Under the pieces are notes generated by a model. That model was not told the origin of the DNA and did no database searches. It saw only the letters and a list, made by a program, of their open reading frames with translations. DNA of 30,649 nt from a virus (taxonomy: Duplodnaviria > Caudoviricetes), in the IMG/VR virus record IMGVR_UViG_3300006735_000134, positions 1-30,649 of that record; one strand, given 5' to 3'. Shown piece after piece: positions 2 to 30,649 of this stretch. Both the position numbers and the translations under genes were made by a program. Position 1 is the first letter of the stretch. The number at the start of each line of letters is the position of its first letter.

Positions 2-2146
2 GATGTTAAGGTAGGTAGAATTGGTGCTACTTGTAATGGTAGATTGTCAAACTTTGTTACTTGTTCATCTACAACTGATTGTGGTGGAACTATAATAGAA
101 AGTATAGCTGCACCTAATGAAGCGTTAGTTTCGTCTGAATATGTAACTAGTCCTGGAAGTGATGGTAGTGATGTTTGTTCTTTAGTTGCAGATATACCAG
201 TTTATTATGTAGGATCAATTGTAGGTAATAATGTTGATAGTGAGGGTGCTACATTATATACCAACAAAAGTTCAACGAATCATATATTTAACCCGTTCGG
301 TGGAACAGGTAATTGGTATAAAATAATATTAACTGGATCTGATGGTAACCCTGCTGATTTTTATTGTAAGATATATGGAGAAGATATAGCTGGTGGATTT
401 GCAGTTGATGTAACGCCTTGTAATCAAAGTGTAGAAACTGGACAAGAGGGTGAAACTACATCTCAAACAAATGCTAATGCTACTGTAACATTAAGTATGT
501 CAACATCAGATGGTAATAATCAAGGTAAAGCATACGTAAGTCAAAGAACAGTATTAACAGCTTCGTCACAAAATATTACAAATCCATCTTATCAATGGAG
601 TAAAGCTAATTCAGGTGGTTCTTTATCAAATATTAGTGGTGCTACAAGTCAACAATTAGTTATAAATGAATCAGGTGGTGGGGGTGAAACACAAACATCT
701 ACTGGAACTAAAATATATAATTGTAGTGTTAGTGGTACTAGTGCTTCAAGTAACTTACAAATAATATGGGAGAATAGAACATCATATTCTGCTAAATATA
801 GTACGCAACCACCACCAAGTAAATCAGCTTGTAGTGGTACAGCTATTACTTTATATGCAGATAGAAATGGTGCAAATGAGTTTTGTTTAGCTACAGCTTT
901 CTTTGAAGATGCAACTGGTCAAACTCCAGCTACAACTGGAAGAACTTACTCTAATAGTACAAATGGTCAAAATGGTAGCTTTAGACAAGTATCAGGAAGT
1001 GGATCAACTTACACTTTAGGTAGTTGTGCTAATAATGATTGTACTGATCCTGTTGATCCTACTACTGGAACAATACAAAAATTAGCATTAACAAGATGTC
1101 CTAATCAAACTAATGCTGGTATTACTGAATATTTTGTGTTTAAAGATTTTAGTTATGGTGTAGGTACAATTTTACACTTAAAGAATTTTGGTCAAAGTGG
1201 TGGTGAGGGTTGTTATACAATAGCAACTCAATATGCAGATAATTTTACTATGCCTAGTGGTACTTATATAGTAGAAAGTGCTGACAAACTAAATTACATA
1301 GAAACATTACAACCTTATGGTAGTTGTACAGAATGTATTAATGACGCACAAGTAACTGAACCTGATTTAATTGATCCAAATAAATATTATGGTGCTTATA
1401 GATTATGTGGAGTGCCTGAAGGAACTTTACAATATGTAGTGTCTGATTCTGAGTTGCCACCAGTTTATAGAATTGGTGCTAATACAAACACTTGTAGAAA
1501 CTTAGCTATATCTGGTGATAGTGCTTATAATGAAAACGCTACTGTATTTGAAGATTTAGTTCCAACATCTTTTAATGATTGTGCAACTTGTTTAGCTGGT
1601 ACAACACCATCTTCAACTGGTCTTACAAATAAAAGAGTATATCAATTGTGTACTGACAACTCAGTAACTTTAGTTGTAGGAACATCAAGTGCAACTTATA
1701 CATTCCCTGATGTTATAAAATATCAAGAGTTAAGTTATTATAATCCACAATCATCTAGTGACGCAACTGTTATTAATGTAGAAGATTTGCTTACATATAG
1801 AGATTGTGACGCAGCAAACTATGTTCCACCAACTATAACACCTGATAGACCATCAAATATAAAAGTTATGAGAATATCATTAACTTCAGCACTTAATAGA
1901 ACATCAGCTTGTAATACTTTATACACTTATGGTTTAAATGTTTATTATGTAGGAACTTTTGGAGATAATACATATTTGTATTCAGATCCTAGTTTAAGTA
2001 CACTTTATGCACCAACAACAGAAACTGGTTTTAGAGTAAACGAAGATAGAAACGCATTTAAAATAGGGTTCACTGGTAACTCAGCAGGAGTTAGACCAGG
2101 AGCAGTATATAATTTTGGTTCTTGTTCTAACGTTGACATCTATTAA
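2..2146 (+). CDS. Large Cys/Ser/Thr/Gly-rich virion protein (tail fibre or adhesin-like), 5'-truncated by the window
   Basis: The frame is open from position 2 (DVKVGRIGATCNGRLSNFV...), so the TTG at 44 is probably not the true start. It has repeated Cys modules and an Ig-like segment (PSYQWSK...IYNCSVSG), and lies at the head of the tail gene block. Confidence 0.6.
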   Translation, partial: DVKVGRIGATCNGRLSNFVTCSSTTDCGGTIIESIAAPNEALVSSEYVTSPGSDGSDVCSLVADIPVYYVGSIVGNNVDSEGATLYTNKSSTNHIFNPFGGTGNWYKIILTGSDGNPADFYCKIYGEDIAGGFAVDVTPCNQSVETGQEGETTSQTNANATVTLSMSTSDGNNQGKAYVSQRTVLTASSQNITNPSYQWSKANSGGSLSNISGATSQQLVINESGGGGETQTSTGTKIYNCSVSGTSASSNLQIIWENRTSYSAKYSTQPPPSKSACSGTAITLYADRNGANEFCLATAFFEDATGQTPATTGRTYSNSTNGQNGSFRQVSGSGSTYTLGSCANNDCTDPVDPTTGTIQKLALTRCPNQTNAGITEYFVFKDFSYGVGTILHLKNFGQSGGEGCYTIATQYADNFTMPSGTYIVESADKLNYIETLQPYGSCTECINDAQVTEPDLIDPNKYYGAYRLCGVPEGTLQYVVSDSELPPVYRIGANTNTCRNLAISGDSAYNENATVFEDLVPTSFNDCATCLAGTTPSSTGLTNKRVYQLCTDNSVTLVVGTSSATYTFPDVIKYQELSYYNPQSSSDATVINVEDLLTYRDCDAANYVPPTITPDRPSNIKVMRISLTSALNRTSACNTLYTYGLNVYYVGTFGDNTYLYSDPSLSTLYAPTTETGFRVNEDRNAFKIGFTGNSAGVRPGAVYNFGSCSNVDIY

Positions 2147-2171
2147 TACTATTTTTGTTTTTTAGGTTATA
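2146..2171 (+). promoter_or_regulatory. Weak candidate late promoter (ATACT-N15-GTTATA)
   Basis: GTTATA at 2166-2171 just upstream of ATG 2186; the upstream element is a degenerate version of the AACA seen at 8452, 9861 and 12521. Confidence 0.35.
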
Positions 2172-2185
2172 TTAAAAAAGATAAG

Positions 2186-3259
2186 ATGGCTACATTAACA
2201 AGTTCTACATTAAAGTTATATTGTTGGACTGGTCAATTCGAAAGTGATAGACCAACCACAGCACAATATACAATTACAAAATCTAACCCTGATTCTAACA
2301 ATACAGTAAGATTTGAAATATCTGAACTTGTACAAGATTTTATTAATATTACATTTAATGATGATTATAGTACAATAGATACTTCTTGTTGGTGGTATTA
2401 CACTAAAACAAATACATATAGTGATTTATCAACTCCTACTTCTACTACTGAATATGGATTAGCAACAAAAGGTTACACTTATTTTGAAGATGGATTTAAC
2501 TCATCATTAAGTTCTAGTAAATTAATATCAAATGAATATTTGTATATTCCAAAAAACATAAAATATTACATACCAATATATTTAGGACCTGGTGGTGTAA
2601 CAAATGTAATATATTACACTAAAGATGCTTTAGGTAATGAAACGCAAGCAGGAAGTCAATCTTTTACACCATACAATCAAATACCTACTACGGAAAGTTC
2701 TTCTGATTACATACAATATGTAGAATCAGCAATACAAGCAAGTAAGATAGAAATTATATCTAGCAATACATCAGCTTCAACTTACTCGTCTATAACATCA
2801 ATAGCAAAAGAAACAATATACCCTATATTTGTTTGTAATACAAAATACACAAATCACAAGGTTTCTTTTATAAATAAATTTGGTGCAATACAAGATTTGT
2901 ACTTTAACAAAAAAAGACAAGATAGATTAAGTGTAGAAAAAGATAATTTTGTTACAAGTACAATCAGATCAACAACAAACTCTGCTACTTACGATACATT
3001 TACCCCATCTAACATTGTTCAAGATGTAGCTTCAACAAAATCTATAACTTTAAACACTGGTTATTTAAGAGAAGAATATAATGAAACAATAAGACAATTA
3101 TTACAATCAGAAAATATATGGATTAGAGAAAATAATCTTACTTTACCAATATTAGTTAAAGACTCTAATTTTCAATATAAAACAAGTGTAAATGATAAAT
3201 TAGTTAATTACACTATAAACTTTGAATTTGCATTTGATGGTATCAATAATATTAGATAA
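2186..3259 (+). CDS. Tail/baseplate structural protein (distal-tail-like)
   Basis: 357 aa. The C-terminal 'FINKFGAIQDLYF...ITLNTGYL...QLLQSENIWI' motif is one I recognise from Bacteroidota siphophage tail genes. Coupled to the next gene by TAATG. Confidence 0.6.
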   Translation: MATLTSSTLKLYCWTGQFESDRPTTAQYTITKSNPDSNNTVRFEISELVQDFINITFNDDYSTIDTSCWWYYTKTNTYSDLSTPTSTTEYGLATKGYTYFEDGFNSSLSSSKLISNEYLYIPKNIKYYIPIYLGPGGVTNVIYYTKDALGNETQAGSQSFTPYNQIPTTESSSDYIQYVESAIQASKIEIISSNTSASTYSSITSIAKETIYPIFVCNTKYTNHKVSFINKFGAIQDLYFNKKRQDRLSVEKDNFVTSTIRSTTNSATYDTFTPSNIVQDVASTKSITLNTGYLREEYNETIRQLLQSENIWIRENNLTLPILVKDSNFQYKTSVNDKLVNYTINFEFAFDGINNIR

Positions 3260-6240
3260 TGAACCAAAAAATACAACTATACATAGAGAACGAACAAGTT
3301 GATGTATTTCAAGATGGTTCTATTAATATTGTAAGTAGTATTAAGGACTTTAGAGAACCTGATAAAATATTTACTGATTTTTCTCGTAATTTTAATTTAC
3401 CAGCTACTTCTAGGAACAACAAGTTATTTAAACATTATTACAATTATGATCTTGTTGGAAATAATTTTGACGCTAGATCATCTAAACAAGCAAGAATTGA
3501 AATAAATGATAGACCATATAAAGATGGTTATATAACACTAGAAAGTGTTAAACTTAAATTTAATAAACCTAGTTCATATAAAGTAACTTTTTATGGTAAC
3601 TTAAAATTACTTAAGGAATTATTTAACAATGTTAAGTTGACAAACTTAGAATGGTTAGAAAGATTTAATATTAATGATAGTCATTATGATTCTAGTGGTG
3701 ATTCATTTTATCATTATTTAACACAAACAAAAGACTATACTTCTAATGATGAATTTACTATTGGAACTGGTGATGGTGTAACAAAAAGATTTAGATTACT
3801 ATATTCTCCATATCCACAATTAGATACAGATTTTAAGTTGTATAACGCAGGATCTGAAGTTGCTACAAGTAATTTTTCTTATTCTTATACATCAGGAGAT
3901 GTTACGTTTAATACTGCTCCTAATGCTGGTAATACTATAACTACAAAATTGTTTTATACACAACCAATTATTGTTCCTTTAATATCTACTTCTGAAAGAT
4001 TGTATTACACAAACAATGCTAATTTTTATGGTGTGATAAGTGATGGTAATTTATATTACAATTCAAGCAACTATCCACTAAACAACCAAATAAATGGATT
4101 AAAGTTTGAACATCTAAAACCTGGTCTTAGAGTGCATTTAGTTTTACGTGCAATAGAGCAAAAAATAAATCGTGATCCTAATACGCCAAACATAGAATTT
4201 TCTAATGACTTTTTTAATGCTAGTAATAAAGATTATTACAATTTATATATGTGGCTAAATAAAGACAAAAAAGCTAATACATTATTTAGTGAGGGTGATA
4301 AAGAAATTAAAGTAAATTCATTTAATATTTCTAGTAATACAATAGCATTATATCAAGATGCTACTAATCAAGGTTTATTAGAAATATCATCTGTAAATTC
4401 ATCAGGTCTAACAGGTACTCAATCAGGTGACACAATTATTGTAAGAAACTCAACAGCTGAAAATATAGATTATATAGAATGTAGGTTTAGAGTTTTTACT
4501 AGTGATACTTCTAATGCTTTTGGTTTAAGAGTATATAGAAATGGATCAGTTATTAGAACGTTTGAACCAGCTGTTGGTAATGGTACATCAAAAGATTATG
4601 ATTTTTACGTAGAACAAGATGGAGATTATCAATTTGAATTATTCTCATCAACAGGTTTGACTATTAATAATGGTTTTGAAGCTAAGTTTGTTATAGCTGG
4701 AGATAGAGATGATGAAGAATATAATGATGTAATAATTAGTGGTGGTGCTTTAACATTTAACAAAGGTAAATTTAGTATATCTAAAAATATGCCTGAGATG
4801 AATGTAATAGAATTTTTATCTGGTTTATTTAAAATGTTTAATCTAGTTTGTTTTGTAGAAAATACAGAAAGTAGTAGTTATAGTACGACTCAATCTAATA
4901 TGAAAAGAATTAGAGTTATGACATATGATTCATACTATGCTTCATCTAGTTCAGAATTAGATATAACAAGTAAAGTAGATACTTCTGAAAGTAGTGTAGA
5001 AAGGTTGATGCCATATTCACAAATAGAATTTAAGTATGAAGATACTCAAGCAGTCCTTGCAGAACAACATAGATCTGACTTTGGATTAGAATGGGGTGGA
5101 GAAAGTTGGACATATAGTGATTCAAGAGGTGAGCAAAAGTATGAAATAATTCCACCTTTTTCACACTTAAAATATGAAAGGTTATTATTGACTGATGGTA
5201 CAACACCATCTTCATTACAAGTAGGTTTTAGTGTTAAAAGAAGTAATGCAGAAAGAAACGTTGCTATTGGTGGTGGTAGTACAGCTGGATTTAAATCATT
5301 CCAAGAAGAAAAATATAGTCCTCATTTTAGTAAGAAACCATTATTGTTTTACGCACATAGAGAAACTAGTGGTACACAAATACCATATGTATATACTGAT
5401 GTAAATAACAACGCAGTTTTTTATGGTGCTATTACAACTTATTTTATACCATTAAATTCAGTTGATATAAATACATCACAATCTAATCATTTTGGAGAAG
5501 AGGTAGATGAGTATAGAGTTTATAATGCTAATGAGCAAAGTAACGTAAACAATTTATTTAATATATATTACAAAAACTATATTGAACATTTATTTGATGT
5601 AAAGTCAAGATTGATAAAAATAAATGCAAATTTAACTAATGCTTTTATATCTAAATATTCGTTAGCTGACAAAATTAGAATACTAGATAAAACATTTAGT
5701 ATAAACAAAATTGATATAGATTTACAAAATGGACAATCAAAATTAGAGTTGCAAAGGTATTATGATGTAGTTTCTTTTGATTGTTTAGCACTAAACTTTA
5801 ATGCTAGAGTAGAGGTTACATCAAGTGGTAATGCTTATGTATTTGATAACAAGTATGGTACATATCAAATGGGGTTAGGTACTTATATAATGAATGATGT
5901 TCCATCAGCTCACCCAATTGCATTTCACAACTTTGGTAAAGAAAGTAGAATTACTTACACAGGTACAGCAAGTGGTGGTACAAAAACTGGGTTAGATGGT
6001 AATACATATACATACTATTATGGTAACGTTACTATAACTGTTGCTGGTGATTTTGGTACAATGAGTTACGAGTGTTATAATCACGGGTATATGGGGGGAG
6101 AAAATAATCTAGTTTATAATGCAGATTGTTTAACGTCTACAACGCCACCAGCACCACCAGTAGTAGGAAACTTAACAGTAGATGCGACTGATATTTATGT
6201 AGATAGTGCAATAATTACGTCAGATCAAACAGATGAATAA
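3259..6240 (+). CDS. Large tail tip/hub protein with an inserted Ig-like module and a C-terminal cupredoxin-like domain
   Basis: 993 aa. N-terminal 'IKDFREPDKIFTDFSRNFNLPATSRNNKLFKH' is typical of Bacteroidota phage tail proteins. It contains a 'GTGDGVTKRF...GDVTFNTAP' module and a C-terminal 'HPIAF...YECYNHGYMGG' motif. Confidence 0.65.
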   Translation: MNQKIQLYIENEQVDVFQDGSINIVSSIKDFREPDKIFTDFSRNFNLPATSRNNKLFKHYYNYDLVGNNFDARSSKQARIEINDRPYKDGYITLESVKLKFNKPSSYKVTFYGNLKLLKELFNNVKLTNLEWLERFNINDSHYDSSGDSFYHYLTQTKDYTSNDEFTIGTGDGVTKRFRLLYSPYPQLDTDFKLYNAGSEVATSNFSYSYTSGDVTFNTAPNAGNTITTKLFYTQPIIVPLISTSERLYYTNNANFYGVISDGNLYYNSSNYPLNNQINGLKFEHLKPGLRVHLVLRAIEQKINRDPNTPNIEFSNDFFNASNKDYYNLYMWLNKDKKANTLFSEGDKEIKVNSFNISSNTIALYQDATNQGLLEISSVNSSGLTGTQSGDTIIVRNSTAENIDYIECRFRVFTSDTSNAFGLRVYRNGSVIRTFEPAVGNGTSKDYDFYVEQDGDYQFELFSSTGLTINNGFEAKFVIAGDRDDEEYNDVIISGGALTFNKGKFSISKNMPEMNVIEFLSGLFKMFNLVCFVENTESSSYSTTQSNMKRIRVMTYDSYYASSSSELDITSKVDTSESSVERLMPYSQIEFKYEDTQAVLAEQHRSDFGLEWGGESWTYSDSRGEQKYEIIPPFSHLKYERLLLTDGTTPSSLQVGFSVKRSNAERNVAIGGGSTAGFKSFQEEKYSPHFSKKPLLFYAHRETSGTQIPYVYTDVNNNAVFYGAITTYFIPLNSVDINTSQSNHFGEEVDEYRVYNANEQSNVNNLFNIYYKNYIEHLFDVKSRLIKINANLTNAFISKYSLADKIRILDKTFSINKIDIDLQNGQSKLELQRYYDVVSFDCLALNFNARVEVTSSGNAYVFDNKYGTYQMGLGTYIMNDVPSAHPIAFHNFGKESRITYTGTASGGTKTGLDGNTYTYYYGNVTITVAGDFGTMSYECYNHGYMGGENNLVYNADCLTSTTPPAPPVVGNLTVDATDIYVDSAIITSDQTDE

Positions 6241-6389
6241 TGATTAGAAATTTAATAGAGTTATTAAAGTTAGACGATCACTATGGTATTAGTGAGAGAG
6301 TAGATATTGCTAAAGGTAAATACAAAGCAAAGAAAAATATGAAAGAAGTTCGTGAACATTTTAAGAGAGTAATCAATGGCAAAGGGTAA
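6240..6389 (+). CDS. Small hypothetical protein (49 aa), not in the ORF track
   Basis: MIRNLIELLKLDDHYGISERVDIAKGKYKAKKNMKEVREHFKRVINGKG. Starts in a TAATG overlap, fills the gap and overlaps the tape measure start. Confidence 0.65.
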   Translation: MIRNLIELLKLDDHYGISERVDIAKGKYKAKKNMKEVREHFKRVINGKG

Positions 6390-8451
6390 AGAATTAATTT
6401 ATACTATAAGGGTTATTGACAAAAGTAAAGTTGTCATTGACGAATTAGGTCAAGAGGTAGAAACACTTGAACAGGCATTTGTTCAGATCAATGGAGAAAT
6501 ACAAAAGACCGATACGCTTCTTGAGGGAACTGCATCTAGTTTCGAAAAGCAAATAAGAACACTAAAACAACAAAGAGATTCTTTAGCTAAAAACTCTGTT
6601 GAATATGGTAAGTATAATGCAAAGATTGCACAAGTAGAAGCTGAGTTACGTAAACTTACAACTACTACTAAAAGTCAAGATCAAGTAAATGCTGATATGA
6701 TTGCAAACACTGGTCTTGCATCTAATACTATTGTAGAATTTGGTAGAACAATATCTGATGCACCATTTGGTATTATTGGTGTAACAAACAACTTATCAAA
6801 CTTAGCTAACAACTTTGAGATACTTAGTGGTAAAGTTGGTGGTACACAAAATGTATTGACTTTATTAAAACGTCAATTAATGAAAGGTGGTGCTTTTGTA
6901 TTAGCAATACAAGGTGTACTTGCATTATTAACATTCTTTAGAGATGATATTGAAAAATTAGTAGCTTCTATATTTGGTGGTAGTAAAAAAATAAAAGAGG
7001 GTATGGTTTCAATAAAAGACGAAGCAATTGCTAGTCGAGCAGCACTTGAAAGATACCTACAAATATTAGATGATGTAACTGCTTCACAACAAGATCAAGC
7101 AACTGCTTTAGATGCACTACTAAGAGGTAACAAAGAATTAAATGACGCACTAGATGAACAACTTATTAGTGGTGAAAAAAGAAGAGAACTATCTAAAGAG
7201 TTTTTTGAATTACAATTAGACTTCTCTACAAAAAGCAACGAACTTAATGACCAATTAGAAAAGTTTAATGCAAAAGATTTGAAAGCATTTGAACGTAAAA
7301 AAGGTAGAATAGCAACTCTAAAACAAGAAAATATAGAACTACAAAAAACAGTAGATTCTCGTAGAGCTGAGGGAACACTTACAGTAAGCACAGAAGCTAG
7401 GGTAAAAAATATTATTAGAGGTAATGATATTAGAATTGGTCAAATGGAAGCAACCATAGCTAAAAGAGATATAGATTTAAACTTATTAAATCAAGTTATA
7501 GATGGTGAAAGACAATTAAATGAATTTGTAGATGAAAGAATAAAAAAGTTTGGTGATATAGAACCGATTGACGATAATCTATTTGAATCACTAAATGATG
7601 ATGTATTAGAGGACGATAGAAATATAATAGAAAGATTACTTGATCCTAATGATGAATTAAAAGATGGATTTGATGCAATTAGATTTGCTGAAGAAAGTGG
7701 TCTAGAGGGTGCGTTAAATGATCTGAATAATTTTATGAAAGAGTATCAAGGAGAAAATGCTCTTGAAAGAATAAACTTAGCACAACAAGAAGCATTAAAT
7801 GAATTAAATATTTTATATGATGCACAAGAAGAAGAATTAGGTAGTAGAATAGGATTTAATGAAGATGTAACTAAAGTAGAACAATTTTATGCTGAACAAA
7901 GAGCTAAAATATCTGAAAAGGAAAATCAAGCAAAAGCAAAAAGTTTACGAGTATCAGCTCAAGCAGCAGTTCAAGTAGGTAAGTTATTACAACAATTAGC
8001 AGGAGAAAATAAAACATTAGCAATAGCAGGAGTGGTTGTAGAAAAAGCTGGTGCAATAGCAAAAATTATAGCTAATAAAAATATAGCTGACGCAGCTGCA
8101 TTACCACTTCTATCTAATCCTCTAACAGCATCACTCGGAACAGCTTTACTTACAACTAATAAAATTACAGCTACAACAGGTGTAATTGCAACAACAGCAT
8201 CAGCAGTTCAAGCTATTAAAGAAATACGTAATCCTGAGAGTGCTACTTCAAGTGGTGCAATAGTTGGTAATGCACCAACACCTTTAGTACAAGCACCATC
8301 ATTTAATGTAGTGGGTGCAACACAAACTAGTCAACTTGCACAAACTATTGCTGGAGCTGAAGAGAAACCTATAAAAGCATTTGTAGTAGAAAGCGAAATA
8401 ACAACAGCACAACAATTAGCAAGATCAGTTATAGTTAATTCTTCTATATAA
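6376..8451 (+). CDS. Tail tape measure protein
   Basis: 691 aa, helical/coiled-coil, with Ala/Gly-rich hydrophobic segments ('SDAPFGIIGVTNNL', 'AFVLAIQGVLALL') and the C-terminal 'PSFNVVG...PIKAFVVESEIT' motif. Confidence 0.8.
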   Translation: MAKGKELIYTIRVIDKSKVVIDELGQEVETLEQAFVQINGEIQKTDTLLEGTASSFEKQIRTLKQQRDSLAKNSVEYGKYNAKIAQVEAELRKLTTTTKSQDQVNADMIANTGLASNTIVEFGRTISDAPFGIIGVTNNLSNLANNFEILSGKVGGTQNVLTLLKRQLMKGGAFVLAIQGVLALLTFFRDDIEKLVASIFGGSKKIKEGMVSIKDEAIASRAALERYLQILDDVTASQQDQATALDALLRGNKELNDALDEQLISGEKRRELSKEFFELQLDFSTKSNELNDQLEKFNAKDLKAFERKKGRIATLKQENIELQKTVDSRRAEGTLTVSTEARVKNIIRGNDIRIGQMEATIAKRDIDLNLLNQVIDGERQLNEFVDERIKKFGDIEPIDDNLFESLNDDVLEDDRNIIERLLDPNDELKDGFDAIRFAEESGLEGALNDLNNFMKEYQGENALERINLAQQEALNELNILYDAQEEELGSRIGFNEDVTKVEQFYAEQRAKISEKENQAKAKSLRVSAQAAVQVGKLLQQLAGENKTLAIAGVVVEKAGAIAKIIANKNIADAAALPLLSNPLTASLGTALLTTNKITATTGVIATTASAVQAIKEIRNPESATSSGAIVGNAPTPLVQAPSFNVVGATQTSQLAQTIAGAEEKPIKAFVVESEITTAQQLARSVIVNSSI

Positions 8452-8477
8452 AACAAAAAAATAAAACTTAAGTTATA
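8452..8477 (+). promoter_or_regulatory. Candidate late (ECF-type) promoter AACA-N16-GTTATA
   Basis: AACA at 8452-8455 and GTTATA at 8472-8477; shares ACTTAAGTTATA with the site at 9874-9885. Confidence 0.6.
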
Positions 8478-8482
8478 ATAAT

Positions 8483-22434: not shown

Positions 22435-22441
22435 ATATAAT

Positions 22442-22714: not shown

Positions 22715-22743
22715 TTAGTAGTTTTTCATAATAATTGGTAGTT

Positions 22744-22773
22744 AAGGGGGAGTGTATGCTCTCCCTTTTTTTT
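22744..22773 (+). terminator. Rho-independent terminator
   Basis: AAGGGGGAG-TGTATG-CTCTCCCTT hairpin followed by a T-run. Confidence 0.85.
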
Positions 22774-23166: not shown

Positions 23167-23962
23167 TATAAATTTTGAAGAGAAGTTTGAGAAGATACTA
23201 AAAGAAAGTTATGTAGATTCTAATGAAGAAATAAAAGAACCACCAATAGCAATATCTAAAGGATTAGCATTTAACAAAGAACCTATACCATTAGGTACAT
23301 ATGGCAACTTTAGTTTTATAAGCGCAGGACCAAAGAGTAAAAAAACATTTTTAGTTAGTTTATTAGCGTCAGCTTATATGGGTTCACACGAAACATATAT
23401 AAAAGATATAAAAGGATTTAGGGGTACAAAAAAAGTATTACATTATGATACTGAACAAAGTAGATACCACGCACAAAGAACATTCAATAGAGTTCATAAG
23501 ATGTGTAAGGATTGCACAGGGTATGAAACATATGCACTTAGACAATTCTTACCTAATGAAAGATTAGAGTTTATTGATTGGCATATATCTAAATCTGAGA
23601 ACGTTGGTTTAGTTATAATTGATGGTGTTGCTGATTTATTAAATGATATAAATGATATAGAAAAATCGAATAAAGTAATACACTACTTAATGAAATGGAC
23701 ATTAGATTATAACATACATATAATTACTGTTATACATTCTAATTTCTATAACTCAAAAGCTACTGGACATCTAGGTTCGTTCTTAGAGAAAAAAACAGAA
23801 ACACAAATTAGTGTACAAACATCAAGTGCAAATAAAGATATAGTTATTGTCGAGTGTAAAAAAAGTAGAGGTATACCATTTCAACAATTTGCATTTGAAG
23901 TTAGACAAGGATTACCAATAGTAATAGATAACGTAGAAGATTACAACAACTCTCCTTTTTAA
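23156..23962 (+). CDS. RecA/SF4-like P-loop ATPase (AAA_25 type), putative replicative helicase
   Basis: Variant Walker A 'SAGPKSKKTF', 'YDTEQ', Walker B 'LVIIDG', 'VIH', 'GHLGS.L.KK.ET'. Confidence 0.75.
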   Translation: MNYSINFEEKFEKILKESYVDSNEEIKEPPIAISKGLAFNKEPIPLGTYGNFSFISAGPKSKKTFLVSLLASAYMGSHETYIKDIKGFRGTKKVLHYDTEQSRYHAQRTFNRVHKMCKDCTGYETYALRQFLPNERLEFIDWHISKSENVGLVIIDGVADLLNDINDIEKSNKVIHYLMKWTLDYNIHIITVIHSNFYNSKATGHLGSFLEKKTETQISVQTSSANKDIVIVECKKSRGIPFQQFAFEVRQGLPIVIDNVEDYNNSPF

Positions 23963-24375
23963 TGTTAGTTACTTTAGACATTCAGATCAAACCACAAGCA
24001 CATCAATCATTTAGGTTTGCAAGGAATGGAAGAAGATATAAACCAAAAAAGATTACCGATTATCAAAATAATTTACGTAACTTAGTTAGTAAGCAACTAC
24101 CTAATAATTTTGAGATTATACAAGCTGGTTCTAAAATTAAGGTAAACTATATAGAATATATATTTAGTTACCCTAAGAGTTTCTCTAAAAAGAAAAAGCT
24201 AGAATTCACTTATAAAACTACTAAACCTGATTTACAGGATAATTTAAACAAAGCATTTTTTGATGCTTTAGAGGGTTTGATTTATGAACAAGATCAAAAC
24301 ATAGTGGTTATTAATAAGATGAGTAAGTTTTATGGAGAGCAAGATAGAATTAGAGTGGAATTCAAAGTTATGTAA
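23962..24375 (+). CDS. rusA: RusA-like Holliday junction resolvase
   Basis: 'TTKPDLQDNLNKAFFDALEGLIYEQDQNI...KFYG' RusA catalytic motif. Confidence 0.85.
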   Translation: MLVTLDIQIKPQAHQSFRFARNGRRYKPKKITDYQNNLRNLVSKQLPNNFEIIQAGSKIKVNYIEYIFSYPKSFSKKKKLEFTYKTTKPDLQDNLNKAFFDALEGLIYEQDQNIVVINKMSKFYGEQDRIRVEFKVM

Positions 24376-24518
24376 TGAGTATTCAATTCGAGTGGATTAA
24401 TGGATTTGTTTTAGGTATTGACTATGTTAGAGACATAGAATACTTCCCTGACGAGTTTACTGATCTAATTAGGTTTAGCTTAGGTTTCTTTTGGATTAAT
24501 GTATTTATATTAAGATGA
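24375..24518 (+). CDS. Small hypothetical protein (47 aa); not in the ORF track
   Basis: MSIQFEWINGFVLGIDYVRDIEYFPDEFTDLIRFSLGFFWINVFILR; coupled at both ends. Confidence 0.65.
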   Translation: MSIQFEWINGFVLGIDYVRDIEYFPDEFTDLIRFSLGFFWINVFILR

Positions 24519-25111
24519 TGGAACTCCTATCGAAATATCACAAATTATGGGTAGCGATGGGATTATCAATTGGAATTCGTAGCGACTTAGTTGAGGACTT
24601 CATACACGAAATGTACTTAAAACTAAACAAGTACATATCAGATCCTAAAAAAATAATGTATAATGAGAATGAACCTAATAAGTTCTATGTATACATAACA
24701 ATCAAAAACTTATGGAATGATTATCTAAAAGCAAAATCAAAGCATAGAATGATTAGCATAGATGATCTTGGCGAAAACAACGAAAGTTATAAAACATATG
24801 TACCTTTAATTGATGACACAAATGATGTATACTACAAAAGGAATCAAGATTATGCACAACAAATAATTCTTGATAACATACAAAAAGAAGTTGATAGTTG
24901 GGATAGATGGTACGACCAAAAATTATTTAAGATATATTATGAAACTGATATAAGTATGAGGAAACTTGCTAAGGATTCTCATATTTCAGTTACATCAATA
25001 TTTAATAGTTGTAAGAACTATAAACAAATAATGAATAGTAAGTTTAACGAAGATTACCAAGATTACATCAATGGTGACTTTCATTTAATAAAACATAATA
25101 AAGATGAGTAA
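24515..25111 (+). CDS. Phage-encoded ECF-type sigma-70 factor
   Basis: Region 2-like 'EDFIHEMYLKL...YVYITIKNLWNDYLK' and region 4 HTH 'SMRKLAKDSHISVTSIFNSCK'; 198 aa. Confidence 0.75.
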   Translation: MMELLSKYHKLWVAMGLSIGIRSDLVEDFIHEMYLKLNKYISDPKKIMYNENEPNKFYVYITIKNLWNDYLKAKSKHRMISIDDLGENNESYKTYVPLIDDTNDVYYKRNQDYAQQIILDNIQKEVDSWDRWYDQKLFKIYYETDISMRKLAKDSHISVTSIFNSCKNYKQIMNSKFNEDYQDYINGDFHLIKHNKDE

Positions 25112-25532
25112 AATTCCAAACAAACCTAAAGATAAAAGGACTAAAGCATATAAACAATGGGTTGCTAAATACGAGAAGCAATCTAGTGGTTTAGGTGATA
25201 GTGTTGAGAAAGTGACTAAAGCAACTGGCATAAAGAAAGTAGTAGATACTATTTTTGATGCTCTTGGAAAAGATTGTGGTTGTGATGGTCGTAAGAAAAC
25301 ATTAAATGAGTTGTACCCTTATAATAAACCAAAATGTTTAAGCGAAGGACAATTTAATTATCTTACAGACTTCTTTAATCAAAAGACTAATACTATAACT
25401 GCTGCGCAACAAAGAGATTTGTTAAACATATATAATTATGTATTCAACACAAACGATGTAGCTACAAGTTGTGGTAGTTGTTTTAATTCAAAGTTAGTAA
25501 GATTAAGAGAGGTCTATACTTTATATTTATGA
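25104..25532 (+). CDS. Hypothetical protein with Cys clusters (possible Zn-binding)
   Basis: 'GLGDSVEKVTKATGIK...DCGCD.RK...TSCGSC'; overlaps the sigma gene. Confidence 0.6.
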   Translation: MSKIPNKPKDKRTKAYKQWVAKYEKQSSGLGDSVEKVTKATGIKKVVDTIFDALGKDCGCDGRKKTLNELYPYNKPKCLSEGQFNYLTDFFNQKTNTITAAQQRDLLNIYNYVFNTNDVATSCGSCFNSKLVRLREVYTLYL

Positions 25533-25909
25533 TAGAGAAAGATTTATTCATATACCTTAAAGAAAAGGTTTACCCTGACCTTGTTATGAGTAATAGTCCA
25601 ATTAGTAGATGGGATTGTTATAGTCCTAAAACTAAACATAGAATAGAATTAAAGTGTCGTAAAACTCATTATGACGAGTTAGTAATAGAACGTGGTAAGT
25701 TTGACGCAATGATAGAAAAAGCTAATGATAACTTTGATCTTCCTATATATATAAACTCAACACCACAAGGAATATATAAATGGAATTTGTTTTTTGTTAC
25801 ACCAACTTGGTTTGAAAAACAATTACCAAAGACAACTGACTTCTCAGATAACTTTAAAATAACTAAAGAAATTGCAATGCTACCAATAGTAGACGCAGAA
25901 ATATTATGA
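25529..25909 (+). CDS. PD-(D/E)xK nuclease-like protein
   Basis: 'RWDC...IELKCR' D...ExK motif. Confidence 0.65.
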   Translation: MIEKDLFIYLKEKVYPDLVMSNSPISRWDCYSPKTKHRIELKCRKTHYDELVIERGKFDAMIEKANDNFDLPIYINSTPQGIYKWNLFFVTPTWFEKQLPKTTDFSDNFKITKEIAMLPIVDAEIL

Positions 25910-26208
25910 CTAAATCAAAACATCAGATCCGAAAAGAACAACCAGTATTTAGTGGTGTTCTTAAATACTTTCCAAAAGCAATACGATACGTATCTAAAGT
26001 AAGTTACGTAGGAAACGAACAACACAATCCTGGCACTCCTCTACATTGGGATAGGTCAAAATCTAAAGATGAGTTAGATGCTTGTATAAGACATTTGTTA
26101 GATCACATAGAAAATCCTATTGATGATGATGGTCTTTTACACTTAGGTAAATCAGCTTGGAGAATATTAGGTGCATTAGAAAAGTTCTTAGAAACTAAAG
26201 ACAAGTAG
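25906..26208 (+). CDS. dATP/dGTP diphosphohydrolase-domain (DUF5664-like) protein
   Basis: 'FPKAI..VSKVS..GN..H....HW...DACIRHL...D.DGLLHL..SAW' pattern. Confidence 0.65.
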   Translation: MTKSKHQIRKEQPVFSGVLKYFPKAIRYVSKVSYVGNEQHNPGTPLHWDRSKSKDELDACIRHLLDHIENPIDDDGLLHLGKSAWRILGALEKFLETKDK

Positions 26209-26210
26209 TG

Positions 26211-26238
26211 TTTGTTTATAAATTGTTTATTATATTTG
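26211..26238 (+). promoter_or_regulatory. Bacteroidota-type promoter (TTTG...TATATTTG)
   Basis: TTTG at 26211-26214 and TATATTTG at 26231-26238, immediately upstream of the methyltransferase GTG; the 16-nt spacer is shorter than canonical. Confidence 0.55.
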
Positions 26239-26242
26239 TTGA

Positions 26243-26893
26243 GTGAATGTTTTAGAGTTGTTTGCAGGAAGTTGTACTTTTAGTAAAGAAGCACAAAAAC
26301 TTGGTCACAAAACATTTAGTTCTGACTATCGTCAATTTGGTAATGTTGACTATGTAGTAGACGTTTTTGACTTTGACATCTCTAAAGTTCCATTTAAGCC
26401 AGACTTAATATGGGCGAGTCCACCTTGTACGTCATTTAGTGTTGCAGCACTATGGCGACATTGGGATAAACTAACACCAATAAGTGATAAAGCAAAATAT
26501 GGAGTAAAGATGGTACAAAAGACATTAGATATAATTAATGAATTAAAACCTAAATATTGGTATATGGAAAACCCAAGAGGTAGACTCAGATCATTAGACG
26601 TAGTAAAAGATTTACCTAGAGCAACAATATGGTATTGTCAATATGGTATGACTATGGCTAAACCAACTGATGTATGGACTAACAATCTATATGATCCAAT
26701 GTTCAATACGAATGGTTGGAAACCTAGACCTGAATGTTTTAGTGGCAATAAAGATTGTCATCACGAAAAAACTGATCGTGAAGCAAAGAAAGTAAAACAA
26801 ATGGGATTAAGTCAATTAAGTGGCAATCACAATAGAAGTATATTACCAAAAGAGTTATGCATAGAAATATTAAAACAAAGTAAAGATGATTAA
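26243..26893 (+). CDS. DNA cytosine-C5 methyltransferase (short phage type)
   Basis: Motif I 'LELFAGS', motif IV 'WASPPC', motif VI 'ENP'. Confidence 0.88.
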   Translation: MNVLELFAGSCTFSKEAQKLGHKTFSSDYRQFGNVDYVVDVFDFDISKVPFKPDLIWASPPCTSFSVAALWRHWDKLTPISDKAKYGVKMVQKTLDIINELKPKYWYMENPRGRLRSLDVVKDLPRATIWYCQYGMTMAKPTDVWTNNLYDPMFNTNGWKPRPECFSGNKDCHHEKTDREAKKVKQMGLSQLSGNHNRSILPKELCIEILKQSKDD

Positions 26894-27662
26894 ATTATTA
26901 GACAATTCCGAATGGGATAAAGATGAGTTAAAGTTAAAGATGTATGATGATACATTTTATTATGATTATTTAGGTAATGCTACATTATCTTCAAGTAGTG
27001 CGAAGCCACTATACAAATCACCACAAGCATATAAAAAATATGTTAGAGAGAATATAAGTAATAAGAAAGCAATAAGAGATGGGAAACTATTTCACACTTT
27101 GTTATTAGAAGAACATAAGATAGCAAGTGAATATCTATTTGTAGACTCAAGCACTAGAACTACAAAGAAGTTTAAGGAAGCTGAGATAGAAAATCCAAAC
27201 TTAACAGTAATGACAAATAGAGAACTAGAATCAATAAGTTATTTGATTAGTGTGTTTGAAAACAATATAGAAGCTAGTGAGTATTTAAGAAATGGTGTTG
27301 CTGAGGAACCTGGCATTGATAATATATTTGGCTTTCCTTTTCGTGCTAAAGCTGACTACCTACGATCTGATACGATCATTGATATTAAGACAACACAAAC
27401 TTTAGATGGTTGGGGTTATAAAGCAAAGAAAGTCTATCATACAGACATACAAGCGTACATATATACTAAGATTTTCCAAGTACAAAACTTCGTTTTTTTG
27501 GTTATAGATAAGAGTACAGGAGAGATAAAAGCATTTCCAGTTACTCAAGAAACTTTAGATAACGCTGAACAAAAAGTAAAGAAAGCGTGTGAAACTTATA
27601 AAGATTATGTATATGACAAAACAAAGAACATCAACCAATACCTTACAATCGAGCATTTATAA
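26886..27662 (+). CDS. RecE/exonuclease VIII-like PD-(D/E)xK exonuclease
   Basis: 'LSSS...GKLFHTLLLE...FRAKADYL...IIDIKTT...Y..QAYIY'; likely partner of ERF. Confidence 0.8.
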   Translation: MIKLLDNSEWDKDELKLKMYDDTFYYDYLGNATLSSSSAKPLYKSPQAYKKYVRENISNKKAIRDGKLFHTLLLEEHKIASEYLFVDSSTRTTKKFKEAEIENPNLTVMTNRELESISYLISVFENNIEASEYLRNGVAEEPGIDNIFGFPFRAKADYLRSDTIIDIKTTQTLDGWGYKAKKVYHTDIQAYIYTKIFQVQNFVFLVIDKSTGEIKAFPVTQETLDNAEQKVKKACETYKDYVYDKTKNINQYLTIEHL

Positions 27663-27906
27663 AGAGCAGATAAATCAAAGCTATTACTTGGCTTTAAGAG
27701 ATTTGGTTGCAGGTGTACCATATAAAGATTTAGTAGATGACTTGTACGAATTTGAACAAAAAGAAATGTACGAAGTATGTGCAGGAATACTAAGAGCATT
27801 GAACTATGCAAAAGAAAAAACATATAAGGAAATAAAAATTGAATTAAACGATTATGAGTATAAACACGAACTTAACATTATCACAAATAAAAATCTTAGT
27901 ATCTAA
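27589..27906 (+). CDS. Hypothetical protein (start uncertain; ATG at 27607 or 27613 possible)
   Basis: 'FEQKEMYEVCAGI' UVR-like helical motif; overlaps both neighbours. Confidence 0.55.
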   Translation: MKLIKIMYMTKQRTSTNTLQSSIYKEQINQSYYLALRDLVAGVPYKDLVDDLYEFEQKEMYEVCAGILRALNYAKEKTYKEIKIELNDYEYKHELNIITNKNLSI

Positions 27907-28285
27907 GGATCTGAAGATTAATATAAAGAAGAATACTAGGAATAGAAAGTATGTTTATGGTAGAGCAATTTACTTTAAACTATGTAAGGAATTTACACAC
28001 GCATCTTTAGTAGAGATAGGAGATAGTGTGAATAGAGAACACGCCACAGTGATACACGGGCTAACTGTATTTAATATGATTGCAATGTATAATGATTCTA
28101 TTATACAAACTTACAATAGAGTAAGAGATGTATTATTACAAGAGGGCAATCAAGCACTCAAGAGATATAGTGAGGTACATTATTGGAGAATTAAGTATGA
28201 AGATTTACTTGAGGATTACGATAAGTTGTTACGAGATCATCTTGAACTTGAGAAGAAAGTTAACAATGAAGAGTTAGAGGTTTAG
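27854..28285 (+). CDS. DnaA domain IV-like helix-turn-helix DNA-binding protein
   Basis: 'TRNRKYVYGRAIY...SLVEIGDSVNREHATVIHG' resembles the DnaA C-terminal 'SL..IG..FG.RDHTTV.H' motif. Confidence 0.75.
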   Translation: MSINTNLTLSQIKILVSKDLKINIKKNTRNRKYVYGRAIYFKLCKEFTHASLVEIGDSVNREHATVIHGLTVFNMIAMYNDSIIQTYNRVRDVLLQEGNQALKRYSEVHYWRIKYEDLLEDYDKLLRDHLELEKKVNNEELEV

Positions 28286-28286
28286 T

Positions 28287-28688
28287 ATGGGTAGAAAGCC
28301 AAAGCAATATAAGTACGTAAAATCTAACGATGGACGTAGAAACAATGGTAGAAAAAAAGGTGTACGTAACATTGATGTACTAGATGCAAATAGTTCGTTA
28401 CGAGTAAACAAAGCTAAACGTAATAGGGCTACAATATATACACAAAATGCTATTGCAAAAGTCTTTGGTTCACAAGAAGAATTCTTTGAGTCTATGGCAG
28501 AGTTTGCAAAGAAAGGTTCTTTCAATCACGCTAAACAATTAATGGAATATGGTTTTGGTAAACCTGGCGAGAGCAATGAAGATAATAACAATAAGGTTAA
28601 TATTAATATAAAAAATCTATTCACAGGTAACGAAGAACAAAACACAATAGACATAGATGAAACAACCGAGTCTGAACCAAAAATATAA
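28287..28688 (+). CDS. Putative terminase small subunit
   Basis: Basic N-terminus and 'LMEYGFGKP' motif; directly upstream of and overlapping terL. Confidence 0.55.
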   Translation: MGRKPKQYKYVKSNDGRRNNGRKKGVRNIDVLDANSSLRVNKAKRNRATIYTQNAIAKVFGSQEEFFESMAEFAKKGSFNHAKQLMEYGFGKPGESNEDNNNKVNINIKNLFTGNEEQNTIDIDETTESEPKI

Positions 28689-29862
28689 TGCACTTGGAAA
28701 TGATTCTAGGTATTTTGTAATCACTGGTGGTAGAGGTAGTGGTAAATCATTTGCGATAACCACATTCTTAGCGTTTCTAACGTTTGAACAAGGACATAAG
28801 ATACTATTTACTAGGTACACAATGATTAGTGCGTCAAACTCAATAATCCCTGAGTTCTTAGAGAAGCTACAACTCTATGATATTATGCACCATTTTAGAA
28901 TTACTAAAGATGAAATCTTAAACATAAGTACTGGTAGTTCAATAATATTTAAAGGCATTAGAACAAGTGCTGGTAACCAAACAGCTGCACTTAAATCTAT
29001 AAATGGAATTACTACTTGGGTTCTTGATGAAGCTGAGGAGATGACTAAGGAAGAGGACTTTGATAAGATAGACCAATCAGTCAGATCAAAGAATAAACCT
29101 AATAGGGTTATATTAATATTAAACCCTGCCACTAAAGAGCATTGGATATACCAACGATTCTTTGCTGGTAAAGGAGTTAACACAGGAGTTAATCTATGCG
29201 TAGACAATATTACATATATTCACACAACTTTCAAAGACAATAAGGAAAATCTTTCTGATTCATTTCTTATACAATTAGAAGATATAAGACGTAGACGACC
29301 TGATAGATACAACCATCAAATACTAGGTGGTTGGTTAGACAAAGCTGAGGGTGTTATATTTACTAATTGGAAAGTCGGTGAATTTAATGAGGAAGTAGAT
29401 TATATATATGGACAAGACTTTGGCTTTAGCGTTGATCCAACTGTGCTAATAAAAGTAGGTGTAAGTAAAGCACTAAAGAAGTTATGGATTAAAACAATGT
29501 ATTGTAAACCTGGTATGTCAACACAAGAGATTGGCGAAGCTAATCGTAGGTATGCAGGAGATGATCTGATTATATGTGATAGTGCAGAACCAAGACTAAT
29601 CAATGAACTCAAAGAGTATTGTAATATAAAACCTACCATAAAAAGAAAGGGTTCAATACTAACGGGTATTGCACTTATACAAGACTACGATTTGATTGTA
29701 GACTCAAATAGTCTTGAGCTGATTAAGGAGTTGAACAATTATGTTTGGCACGAAAGAAACACTAAGCCAATACAAAAGTATGACCACCACATAGACTCAT
29801 TACGTTATTGCACACAATACTTTTTAGCTAACGCAAACAAAGGAGTCTACGTTATTCGCTAA
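28657..29862 (+). CDS. terL: Terminase large subunit (PBSX/SPP1-like)
   Basis: Walker A 'GGRGSGKS', Walker B 'WVLDEAEE', 'LNP', nuclease 'GQDFGFSVDP', 'DSAEP', 'DHHIDSLRY'. Confidence 0.95.
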   Translation: MKQPSLNQKYNALGNDSRYFVITGGRGSGKSFAITTFLAFLTFEQGHKILFTRYTMISASNSIIPEFLEKLQLYDIMHHFRITKDEILNISTGSSIIFKGIRTSAGNQTAALKSINGITTWVLDEAEEMTKEEDFDKIDQSVRSKNKPNRVILILNPATKEHWIYQRFFAGKGVNTGVNLCVDNITYIHTTFKDNKENLSDSFLIQLEDIRRRRPDRYNHQILGGWLDKAEGVIFTNWKVGEFNEEVDYIYGQDFGFSVDPTVLIKVGVSKALKKLWIKTMYCKPGMSTQEIGEANRRYAGDDLIICDSAEPRLINELKEYCNIKPTIKRKGSILTGIALIQDYDLIVDSNSLELIKELNNYVWHERNTKPIQKYDHHIDSLRYCTQYFLANANKGVYVIR

Positions 29863-29865
29863 ACT

Positions 29866-29910
29866 TAATTAGGTTCAATATAATTGGGTTCAATACGATA
29901 GGTTATAATA
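29866..29910 (+). repeat. Three tandem 15-bp imperfect repeats (core GGTTCAATA)
   Basis: TAATTAGGTTCAATA / TAATTGGGTTCAATA / CGATAGGTTATAATA; a further GGTTCAATA at 29650-29658. Confidence 0.7.
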
Positions 29911-29992
29911 CCCACAAGCATAAAGCATACACCCATATTATCACGAGTGATGTCCACACTAACGCAAGTATTATTATTTTTTTATATTTCAT
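29903..29992 (-). CDS. Candidate 29-aa single-pass membrane peptide; not in the ORF track
   Basis: MKYKKIIILALVWTSLVIIWVYALCLWVL; a TATATTTG box lies on the same strand 8 nt upstream. Confidence 0.55.
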   Translation of the reverse strand: MKYKKIIILALVWTSLVIIWVYALCLWVL

Positions 29993-30000
29993 TGATCTGA

Positions 30001-30008
30001 CAAATATA
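30001..30008 (-). promoter_or_regulatory. Bacteroidota-type -7 box, leftward
   Basis: CAAATATA on + equals TATATTTG on -. Confidence 0.55.
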
Positions 30009-30027
30009 TATTTTTATTGTACATAAG

Positions 30028-30058
30028 TTGTATATAACTCTATTTTTTTTTATCTTAG
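30028..30058 (+). promoter_or_regulatory. Candidate early promoter TTG-N20-TATCTTAG
   Basis: TTG at 30028-30030 and TATCTTAG at 30051-30058 (one mismatch to TAnnTTTG), canonical spacing, upstream of ATG 30082. Confidence 0.55.
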
Positions 30059-30081
30059 TAGTCTAATTTAAAACTATTATT

Positions 30082-30649
30082 ATGAGAATTTATATATTAC
30101 ATACTACAAGTAATCTACAAGATTACAACGACCACCAAGTATTTACATCTTGGAAAGAAGTCGTAACTAAATTTCAAGAACTAGTTAAAAATGCTAGAGC
30201 TGAAGCTAATGAAATCTATACTGATGAGTATACTGAGTTCTATTTTGATGGATCTGAGGGTAGCGAAAAGATTTATATTACTGAACACAATGTATATGAT
30301 AACGAAAGATATGCTAGACAATGTAGCATTACTGATGAGGGAATGAATCAAGGTTGGATAGATGAAGATACAGGAGTATATTTCAAGTATAAAAAAGACG
30401 CTGTGCAATATGTAAAAAACTTAATGATGAATACATATGAATCAGAGGGCGATAGTGCATTTGATATTGATAAATATAAAAAAGATGATGACATCATAGA
30501 TGTTGGATTTAACCATTACAACTTTTATTGGACATCTTGGGAAGATGAAGCTGACCTACAATATAAATTAGTTGATGGAGAACTAATAGAAGATGAGGAA
30601 TATATGGAAGACCAACAAGCAAAGTTTGAATACAATTTAGAACAAGCAA
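30082..30649 (+). CDS. Acidic hypothetical (probable early) protein, 3'-truncated by the window
   Basis: Open frame MRIYILHTTSNLQDYNDHQVF...YARQCSITDEGMNQGW...EDEEYMEDQQAKFEYNLEQA runs off the window; absent from the track because no stop codon is present. Confidence 0.75.
   Translation, partial: MRIYILHTTSNLQDYNDHQVFTSWKEVVTKFQELVKNARAEANEIYTDEYTEFYFDGSEGSEKIYITEHNVYDNERYARQCSITDEGMNQGWIDEDTGVYFKYKKDAVQYVKNLMMNTYESEGDSAFDIDKYKKDDDIIDVGFNHYNFYWTSWEDEADLQYKLVDGELIEDEEYMEDQQAKFEYNLEQA

Follow-up and report, generated by a model that had tools for sequence, protein, structure and literature searches.

A heptamer held at about one copy per kilobase

Selection keeps the heptamer TCAGATC at ~1 copy per kb in the phage genome analyzed here, in either orientation and at any position, and it does so in one clade of viruses. 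The genome is IMG/VR record IMGVR_UViG_3300006735_000134, and by the window we mean this whole stretch of 30,649 nucleotides, a complete 30.6-kb virus record with capsid, portal, terminase, and lysis genes. The word occurs 15 times as TCAGATC and 17 times as its reverse complement GATCTGA, and these 32 copies (Table 1) make up 32 of the 84 GATC sites in the window. Counting either strand, the density is roughly tenfold over expectation. An earlier note on this DNA, made from the sequence alone, had drawn attention to the word; all 31 positions that it listed are right, but it overlooked the copy at 26586. Its estimates that ~3 copies would be expected and that a third or more of GATC sites have this flank agree with our counts.

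The excess was measured against several null models. Markov models predict 2.9–3.8 copies, and TCAGATC is the top-ranked 7-mer at orders 1, 2, and 3. Coding sequences hold 31 copies versus 3.7 ± 1.7 in 1,000 protein-preserving codon shuffles (maximum 9), and the expectation for these copies is 2.8 if the shuffle is conditioned on the next base. A synonymous-swap null that also bars the words avoided by the genome gives 1–10 TCAGATC in every sample. Thus, the Markov and codon-shuffle nulls rule out an artefact of composition, codon usage, or protein sequence, and the null barring avoided words rules out a by-product of restriction-site avoidance. A restriction site that is itself avoided would be under-represented, and what we observe instead is an excess.

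The enrichment is specific to this flank: every one of the 32 CAGATC in the window is preceded by T, and ACAGATC, CCAGATC, and GCAGATC do not occur, which answers the earlier note's question of whether other GATC-flank heptamers are equally enriched. As that note had remarked, the copies lie in different reading frames and use uncommon codons. Those in coding sequence occupy five frame/orientation classes (5, 5, 5, 6, and 10 copies), and the motif accounts for 5 of the 9 CAG codons and 6 of the 10 CTG codons of the window; a single copy, at 29994, is intergenic. Because the genes that contain the sites are intact and read through them in frame, and because other records have copies at homologous positions, an origin at assembly or library junctions is ruled out. 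A search for a longer repeat containing TCAGATC found none, the flanks are not conserved past a mild +1/+2 bias, and the copies do not favor the neighborhood of gene ends (median distance 176 vs 185 bp, P = 0.47). TCAGCTC, with 9–11 copies in the window and in the related virus records G001–G003 and only 2 each in the related records G004 and G005, was not adopted as a member of a degenerate motif.

Copies are placed to fill gaps

With both strands pooled, the coefficient of variation (CV) of the gaps between copies in the window is 0.525 (P = 4e-5), and the shortest gap is 257 bp (P = 8e-5). None of 124 control heptamers with comparable counts has a CV this low (minimum 0.59, median 0.96), so the impression in the earlier note that no gap falls under ~250 bp and that the spacing is more even than random is borne out, with strands pooled only. 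Taken singly, the strands of the window are not evenly spaced (P = 0.40 and 0.16); over six records, the per-strand CV is nonsignificant in 11 of 12 strand tests, and per-strand gaps reach 5.6–7 kb. The order of orientations along the window is random in a runs test, and orientation counts are 15:17 in the window and 16:20, 14:25, 14:20, and 14:10 in G001–G004.

We next define a reachable place as a spot where TCAGATC can be written without protein change. The window has 60 of these, of which 31 are used, and each unused place lies ≤618 bp from a used one. The used places have a CV of 0.49, random choice among the reachable ones gives 0.90, and none of 10,000 draws was as even. The two largest gaps, 9170–11454 and 16368–18729, contain zero reachable places. 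The same coverage trend is found in G001–G004 (P = 0.003, 0.0001, 0.04, and 0.04), and G005 is without it (P = 0.67). From these results, we conclude that the pattern is that of a coverage signal read in double-stranded form, with diminishing returns for added copies. The dispersed cis-signal under DNA-level selection that the earlier note proposed is upheld by the codon shuffles, the avoided-word null, the conservation of sites described below, and the gap-filling spacing. Its strand-specific versions, Chi-like or priming, are disfavored because the evenness appears only with strands pooled and because replacement sites flip orientation. A primase or nicking site would be spaced regularly on one strand, and no such spacing is found.

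The Chi version can be compared with described cases. Chi-rich phages (LLS, MD8, P1, and Rec-minus lambdoids; PMC12315714, PMC3784561) are reported to gather an asymmetric short word at 0.5–1 per kb under selection, LLS at one per 1.86 kb (PMC12315714), and at a similar density TCAGATC could mimic the host Chi and tame AddAB/RecBCD at double-strand ends. Breaks anywhere in a circularly permuted genome could then need both orientations. However, Chi in phages is described as polarised (20:3, 32:0) and gathered toward one end; the host genome shares it, and it goes with the absence of a phage recombination module, which most such phages lack, or of an inhibitor. Here the two orientations are balanced (15:17), the spacing is even only when pooled, lost copies are replaced across strands, and neither clustering, enrichment in the sampled Flavobacteriales genomes, nor a skew footprint was found. 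The word is also strong in a phage with ERF, ExoVIII-like, and RusA genes, which by family assignment would be its own recombination module, and having such a module, ERF in particular, argues against Chi dependence. We consider a Chi mimic very improbable.

One clade carries the excess and replaces lost copies

The word is present in 36 copies in G001 (37.0 kb), 39 in G002 (36.7 kb), 34 in G003 (37.5 kb), 24 in G004 (16.3 kb), and 18 in G005 (33.8 kb), and G005 also has a mild general GATC excess. In a survey of 318 loci, each of at least 2.5 kb, 58 are enriched at P < 0.01, and of these, 56 are views of the motif clade (many of them redundant) and 2 are tiny outsiders. A six-gene tree joins the motif-positive records in one clade with G005 basal (support 1.0). 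Sister lineages lie at or slightly below expectation (7 vs 13.6 and 16 vs 21.3), a deficit that is not significant and that we do not read as avoidance. The comparison with related phages, which the earlier note had suggested, confines the excess, the two tiny outsiders apart, to the clade of the window and G001–G005. An independent origin in locus L063 is unconvincing, with three places in 4 kb. The structural genes are mosaic, and the GATC-free loci L005–L007 fall inside the motif clade in the capsid tree only; they are outside it in the portal and concatenated trees and are not counted as a loss within the clade.

GATC is wholly absent over 5–21 kb in the sister loci L005–L007, L090, L096, L098, L099, L102, L104, L105, and L222. 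The motif clade, unlike these lineages, keeps GATC at normal frequency, which suggests hosts differing in GATC restriction.

Between the window and G002 (85% identity), 24 of 31 sites are kept over a background of 0.42, and between G001 and G002, 32 of 36 are kept. At 75% identity, 2 of 13 sites are kept (background 0.19) with density unchanged, G004 having its 24 copies in 16 kb. Lost sites can be seen to be replaced: relatives without the copies at 8797, 14183, and 20295 have opposite-strand copies 7, 108, and 210 bp off. More generally, when the window is compared with G002, new copies are found close to lost ones (median 198 bp, P = 0.0016), and the comparison with G003 gives the same result (117 bp, P = 0.005).

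In the clade, one-mismatch neighbors of the word number 116 where 173 are expected, a deficit of about the amount that conversion into TCAGATC would use up. This deficit, along with the conservation of sites, would fit a neutral drive in which a repair or conversion bias makes and restores the word from one-mismatch neighbors with no benefit, as has been proposed for the cyanobacterial word HIP1. Such a drive predicts neither the gap-filling choice among reachable places nor nearby replacement, and we regard it as extremely improbable.

C-N-G is purged outside the motif

The core of the word is removed elsewhere in the genome. Synonymous changes that make C-N-G are suppressed sixfold (14/654 vs 382/2,994 in other contexts), a suppression that three control quartets lack. 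Motif copies apart, the window has synonymous CAG at 4 of 377 places and CTG at 6 of 443. The synonymous CNG/CNH ratio is 0.18–0.44 in the six clade records (0.26 in G005), 0.75–1.27 in 14 related loci, and 0.78 in Nonlabens phage P12024L. Seventeen synonymous CNG are kept in all four close genomes, and 10 of these are motif copies. TCAGATC contains CAG/CTG, and the word is therefore retained against a genome-wide pressure on its core. The strength of the purge is independent of how far a place lies from the motif, and there is no local CNG gradient or base skew around the sites. Because nonsynonymous C>T changes are not elevated at CNG (3/218 vs 25/1,726), selection is favored over deamination, and loss through deamination is unsupported. 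This purge may be a finding in its own right.

The window also avoids restriction-like words heavily, with 36 minimal 4–6-mers at ≤15% of expectation, including CATG, GGCC, CGCG, GGATG, GACAG, GAAGG, AAGCTT, TCTAGA, and TGATCA.

Candidate writers

Two predicted enzymes of the window are candidate writers of a mark on the word. The first is a Mom-like protein. An alignment profile of 30 such sequences matches Mu Mom (PDB 8bv8, E = 3.7e-23), and the structure model is confident (mean pLDDT, the predicted local distance difference test, of 85). Aligned by eye, residues H58, Y59, R111, S124, D149, and Y159 of Mu Mom fall on H25, Y26, R77, S90, D111, and Y121, which are invariant in all 30 aligned sequences. 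The gene is found in six of seven motif-positive loci (the seventh starts downstream of it) and in L119 and L004, and in none of 16 motif-negative loci, 14 of which span its site; every motif-positive record spanning the site has it, basal G005 included. The protein ends in QLNMF (21441–21464), and a QxxLF-like tail is common to the 30 aligned proteins. We take this tail to resemble the beta-clamp (sliding-clamp) binding motif, and from its sequence, it suggests that modification could be coupled to replication.

The second candidate is a short C5 cytosine methyltransferase, whose gene is in all seven motif-positive loci and, as one fragment, among the 16 negatives; it has no match in the weakly enriched G005. 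Of the four proteins that the earlier note had named as possible readers or writers, these two are near clade-confined, but the other two are not. The small nuclease-like open reading frame (ORF) is also in 7 of 16 motif-negative loci, and family searches gave no match for the PD-(D/E)xK label that the note had attached to it; the DnaA-IV-like helix-turn-helix (HTH) protein is in 16 of 16. Further unannotated ORFs are clade-restricted, namely cluster 37 (6 of 7 positives and L119, 0 of 16 negatives) and clusters 38, 40, and 41, and no recognisable DNA-binding family was found among them. An additional N6/N4-type methyltransferase occurs in G004 and G005 (L088, 6060–6707; L119, 7616–8257) and is absent from the window.

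The C5 methyltransferase, rather than the Mom-like enzyme, might write the mark, as 5-methylcytosine in the CAG/CTG core or in GATC and with the same coverage logic. Its gene is carried by all five records with strong, even enrichment and is lacking in G005, where enrichment is weak and spacing random, and C-N-G is a cytosine context. However, G005 purges CNG equally strongly without the gene, the genome lacks the deamination footprint noted above, and the distant locus L347 has a homolog and no such word. This makes the C5 enzyme an improbable writer.

A possible self mark

Our preferred reading, held tentatively, is that TCAGATC is a phage-written "self" mark, a modification made by the Mom-like enzyme that would shield ~0.6 kb on each side from a scanning host nuclease. 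The enzyme would write a chemical mark at the CAG core of the word, and each mark would protect its surroundings against a scanning or traveling nuclease of the host. The host reader would be a defense enzyme, its action set by the distance to the nearest mark. Selection would fill gaps and not build clusters because a second copy beside an existing one would add little, and C-N-G would be purged because modification at other CAG/CNG sites would be costly. The modification of the site, the Mom-like enzyme as writer, and a host defense enzyme as reader are all steps that we infer.

Mu Mom is reported to put glycine from tRNA onto adenine in S-A-S, loosely SASNY (PMC13219725, PMC7261163), and TCAGATC fits SASNY at CAGAT. 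A precedent for spacing is found in the phosphorothioate systems DndFGH/SspE, for which a mark spacing of 1.5–10 kb has been proposed to set self/non-self discrimination (PMC8053081). Those marks are described as host-written at a variable subset of abundant 3–4-base sites, whereas here the word is fixed, seven bases long, and encoded by the phage, and no dnd/ssp gene is annotated in the window. What we count toward a Mom-written self mark, enough for a provisional preference, is the coverage logic, the freedom of orientation, the maintenance of density over position, the co-occurrence of the Mom-like gene, the active-site match, the CNG purge, and this spacing precedent. It is also possible, although doubtful, that a Mom-family enzyme has turned from a blanket to a site-specific writer with the genome rebuilt around it to have one marked TCAGATC per kb and no stray CAG, the marks acting as distance-limited "self" beacons or roadblocks to a traveling host nuclease. 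If true, this would be an undescribed coverage-based counter-defense encoded in synonymous codon choice.

Several observations weigh against the Mom-written mark. The word, the Mom-like gene, and the purge of CNG share a single origin, on one branch of the tree (support 1.0), and therefore any clade-specific gene or host shift explains their co-variation equally well. The likeness to Mu Mom (6-NcmdA) lies in a homologous GNAT enzyme with six of the seven proposed active-site residues kept (PMC13219725), but Mu Mom is described as modifying ~20% of adenines, its target being loose and three bases long, and Mu is CAG-rich; a preference for seven bases would therefore be new. Even spacing of a special word is not seen in Mu, whereas in the motif clade selection maintains a seven-base word and removes CAG elsewhere. 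R151 of Mu Mom is reported as essential in the same paper, and the matching place here holds D113, in a column that is variable in this Mom-like subfamily. The purge of CAG is odd if modification is simply protective. G005 has the Mom-like gene yet shows only ~6-fold enrichment and random spacing. Nearby replacement is nonsignificant in the other seven genome pairs, the test saturating at 75% identity. A Markov scan of 70 more distant Mom loci and JeffCo gave no comparable word, codon shuffles of the cultured Mom phages Mu, PM87, vB_EauM-23, and Riggi gave no evenly spaced counterpart among the words examined further, and over this set a general rule that Mom phages enrich a word was not found. 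Finally, S-A-S is not generally purged from Mom-bearing loci (29 vs 32 loci, P = 0.66), and in this comparison the CAG difference is confounded by family and region.

The same pattern could arise without chemistry. An unmodified TCAGATC could be where a clade-specific small early protein, or a host protein, loads before spreading along ~1 kb of the phage DNA, which it would coat, organise, counter-silence, or protect, and stray CAG/CTG cores would be purged because they act as weak decoys. Orientation independence, saturating coverage, and the CNG purge would all be explained, and the clade-restricted ORFs of clusters 37, 38, 40, and 41 could supply the protein. Those ORFs, however, have no recognisable DNA-binding family, the HTH protein is in every motif-negative locus, and the annotated proteins include no spreading protein. 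Both the loading site and its decoys seem to us rather unlikely.

Other Mom-bearing and C5-bearing loci gave some observations of their own. Bacillus phage Riggi (L351, NC_022765) has AGCCAGC 24 times in coding DNA versus 2.8 expected, on both strands and not evenly (CV 0.89); GGCCAGC is absent from it, and the excess may be a by-product of GGCC avoidance. ACCGGGA in L187 was rejected as a counterpart word, being uneven over its record. Low CNG/CNH ratios also occur in three Mom-bearing outsiders (0.45–0.56) and one C5-bearing outsider (0.60) (L159, L188, L198, and L347), and loci L191, L201, and L206 have GAG at ~0.3–0.4 of expectation.

Likely host

P12024L has a capsid protein 33% identical to the one in the window, and a capsid scan matched five distant genome contigs, three of them labelled Bacteroidia or Flavobacteriales; on these grounds, a Flavobacteriia host is probable. 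A terminase scan of species genomes gave no match, and the ExoVIII-like protein matched 3 of 401 Flavobacteriales genomes at 32–44%. No candidate host favors the word: the highest density is 0.34 per kb in these 401 genomes, a sample of a larger group in which the true host may not be included. The ratio of TCAGATC to VCAGATC is ≤0.72 in 40 Flavobacteriales genomes picked by eye from the densest, mostly small ones, and the corresponding counts in the phages are 32/0 (window), 36/2, 39/3, 34/3, and 24/1. Three Flavobacteriales genomes of 1.7–1.8 Mb (G035, G086, and G096) have only 1–6 TCAGATC and are likely GATC-avoiding; from hosts like these, a phage with TCAGATC would be distinguishable by sequence alone.

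These data bear on whether a host enzyme writes the mark. The word could be the preferred target of a host methyltransferase, or of phosphorothioation at or beside GATC, with the phage collecting host "self" marks against a spacing-sensitive defense. DndFGH/SspE have been proposed to recognise self by mark spacing (PMC8053081), a host shift would account for the single origin, and the phage avoids 36 restriction-like words, so host DNA-scanning defenses matter to it. Against this, no candidate host favors the word, and among the 318 loci, the only unrelated ones with it are the two tiny outsiders. A host writer is decidedly unlikely.

Comparison with known systems

The DNA uptake sequences of Neisseriaceae and Pasteurellaceae are asymmetric 9–12-mers that occur on both strands at ~1 per kb and within genes of competent host chromosomes. 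TCAGATC differs in being a heptamer in a phage, and no sampled Flavobacteriales genome favors it. The nearest working resemblance appears to be HIP1, to which TCAGATC is most like, yet it is asymmetric and viral. HIP1, GCGATCGC, is a palindromic, GATC-containing cyanobacterial octamer that is over-represented and regularly distributed and whose function is described as unresolved (PMC5861425). The two have in common a short GATC word in all frames, conserved beyond controls and regularly spaced; we likewise find over-representation, frame independence, conservation, and regularity. HIP1, however, is a palindrome of cellular chromosomes across a phylum, with periodicity at tens of kb, whereas TCAGATC is asymmetric, is seven bases long, belongs to one phage clade, and recurs about every 1 kb, with depleted one-mismatch neighbors and a purged core; it is neither a GCGATCGC-type octamer nor in a cyanobacterium.

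TCAGATC is thus a variant of an iterated genome-wide signal. Known phage patterns are restriction-site loss and, for Chi, gain of a polar host signal. An orientation-free, gap-filling word with removal of its core elsewhere implies an unnamed DNA process with a range of ~0.6 kb. It offers a small, testable case of the HIP1-type puzzle, with one word in a genome of 37 kb and two candidate enzymes that laboratory E. coli could express, and it could lead to a Mom enzyme of new specificity or to a host defense that uses mark spacing to judge self. We found no paper on TCAGATC with phage or recognition in a literature search that excluded supplements and REBASE, so a methylome listing is possible.

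Table 1. Coordinates of TCAGATC copies and other features of the window (+, TCAGATC on the given strand; −, GATCTGA on the given strand)
Feature	Position	Strand	Remarks
TCAGATC copy	336..342	−	
TCAGATC copy	1982..1988	+	
TCAGATC copy	2964..2970	+	
TCAGATC copy	3851..3857	−	same in L002
TCAGATC copy	5072..5078	−	same in L002
TCAGATC copy	6220..6226	+	
TCAGATC copy	6483..6489	+	absent in L002/L003
TCAGATC copy	7720..7726	−	absent in L002/L003
TCAGATC copy	8797..8803	+	replaced in L002/L003 (7 bp off, opposite strand)
TCAGATC copy	9170..9176	−	
TCAGATC copy	11454..11460	−	
TCAGATC copy	11793..11799	−	
TCAGATC copy	13249..13255	+	
TCAGATC copy	14183..14189	+	replaced in L002–L004 (108 bp off, opposite strand)
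TCAGATC copy	14948..14954	−	
TCAGATC copy	16368..16374	−	
TCAGATC copy	18729..18735	−	
TCAGATC copy	19591..19597	−	
TCAGATC copy	20295..20301	+	replaced in L004 (210 bp off, opposite strand)
TCAGATC copy	20812..20818	+	within Mom-like gene
TCAGATC copy	21781..21787	−	
TCAGATC copy	22810..22816	+	
TCAGATC copy	23982..23988	+	
TCAGATC copy	24638..24644	+	
TCAGATC copy	25923..25929	+	
TCAGATC copy	26586..26592	+	within C5 methyltransferase gene; overlooked in the earlier note
TCAGATC copy	27364..27370	−	
TCAGATC copy	27908..27914	−	
TCAGATC copy	29081..29087	+	
TCAGATC copy	29563..29569	−	
TCAGATC copy	29994..30000	−	sole intergenic copy
TCAGATC copy	30251..30257	−	
Mom-like DNA adenine-modifying GNAT enzyme, 225 aa; candidate writer	20787..21464	+	clade-restricted; PF25680, E = 2e-40, above cut-off; PHROG 1384
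Short C5 cytosine methyltransferase, 216 aa; second candidate writer	26243..26893	+	PF00145, PHROG 757
ERF ssDNA-annealing protein	21871..22434	+	PF04404
RusA resolvase	23962..24375	+	PF05866
Exonuclease VIII-like protein	26886..27662	+	PHROG 412, E = 3e-30
Genome-wide purge of synonymous C-N-G (mainly CAG/CTG) outside motif	1..30649	.	synonymous-change and codon-site counts

Two peptidase M15 genes (19407–19868 and 21454–21825) lie on either side of the holin and Mom-like genes. In the relatives, a one-strand repeated word around TAAACGCAGTAGG, assembled from overlapping enriched 8-mers, is found in the early region of L090, L093, L096, L099, L102, L104, L105, and L119. It occurs in motif-negative relatives, with a variant in G005, and is probably an early promoter.

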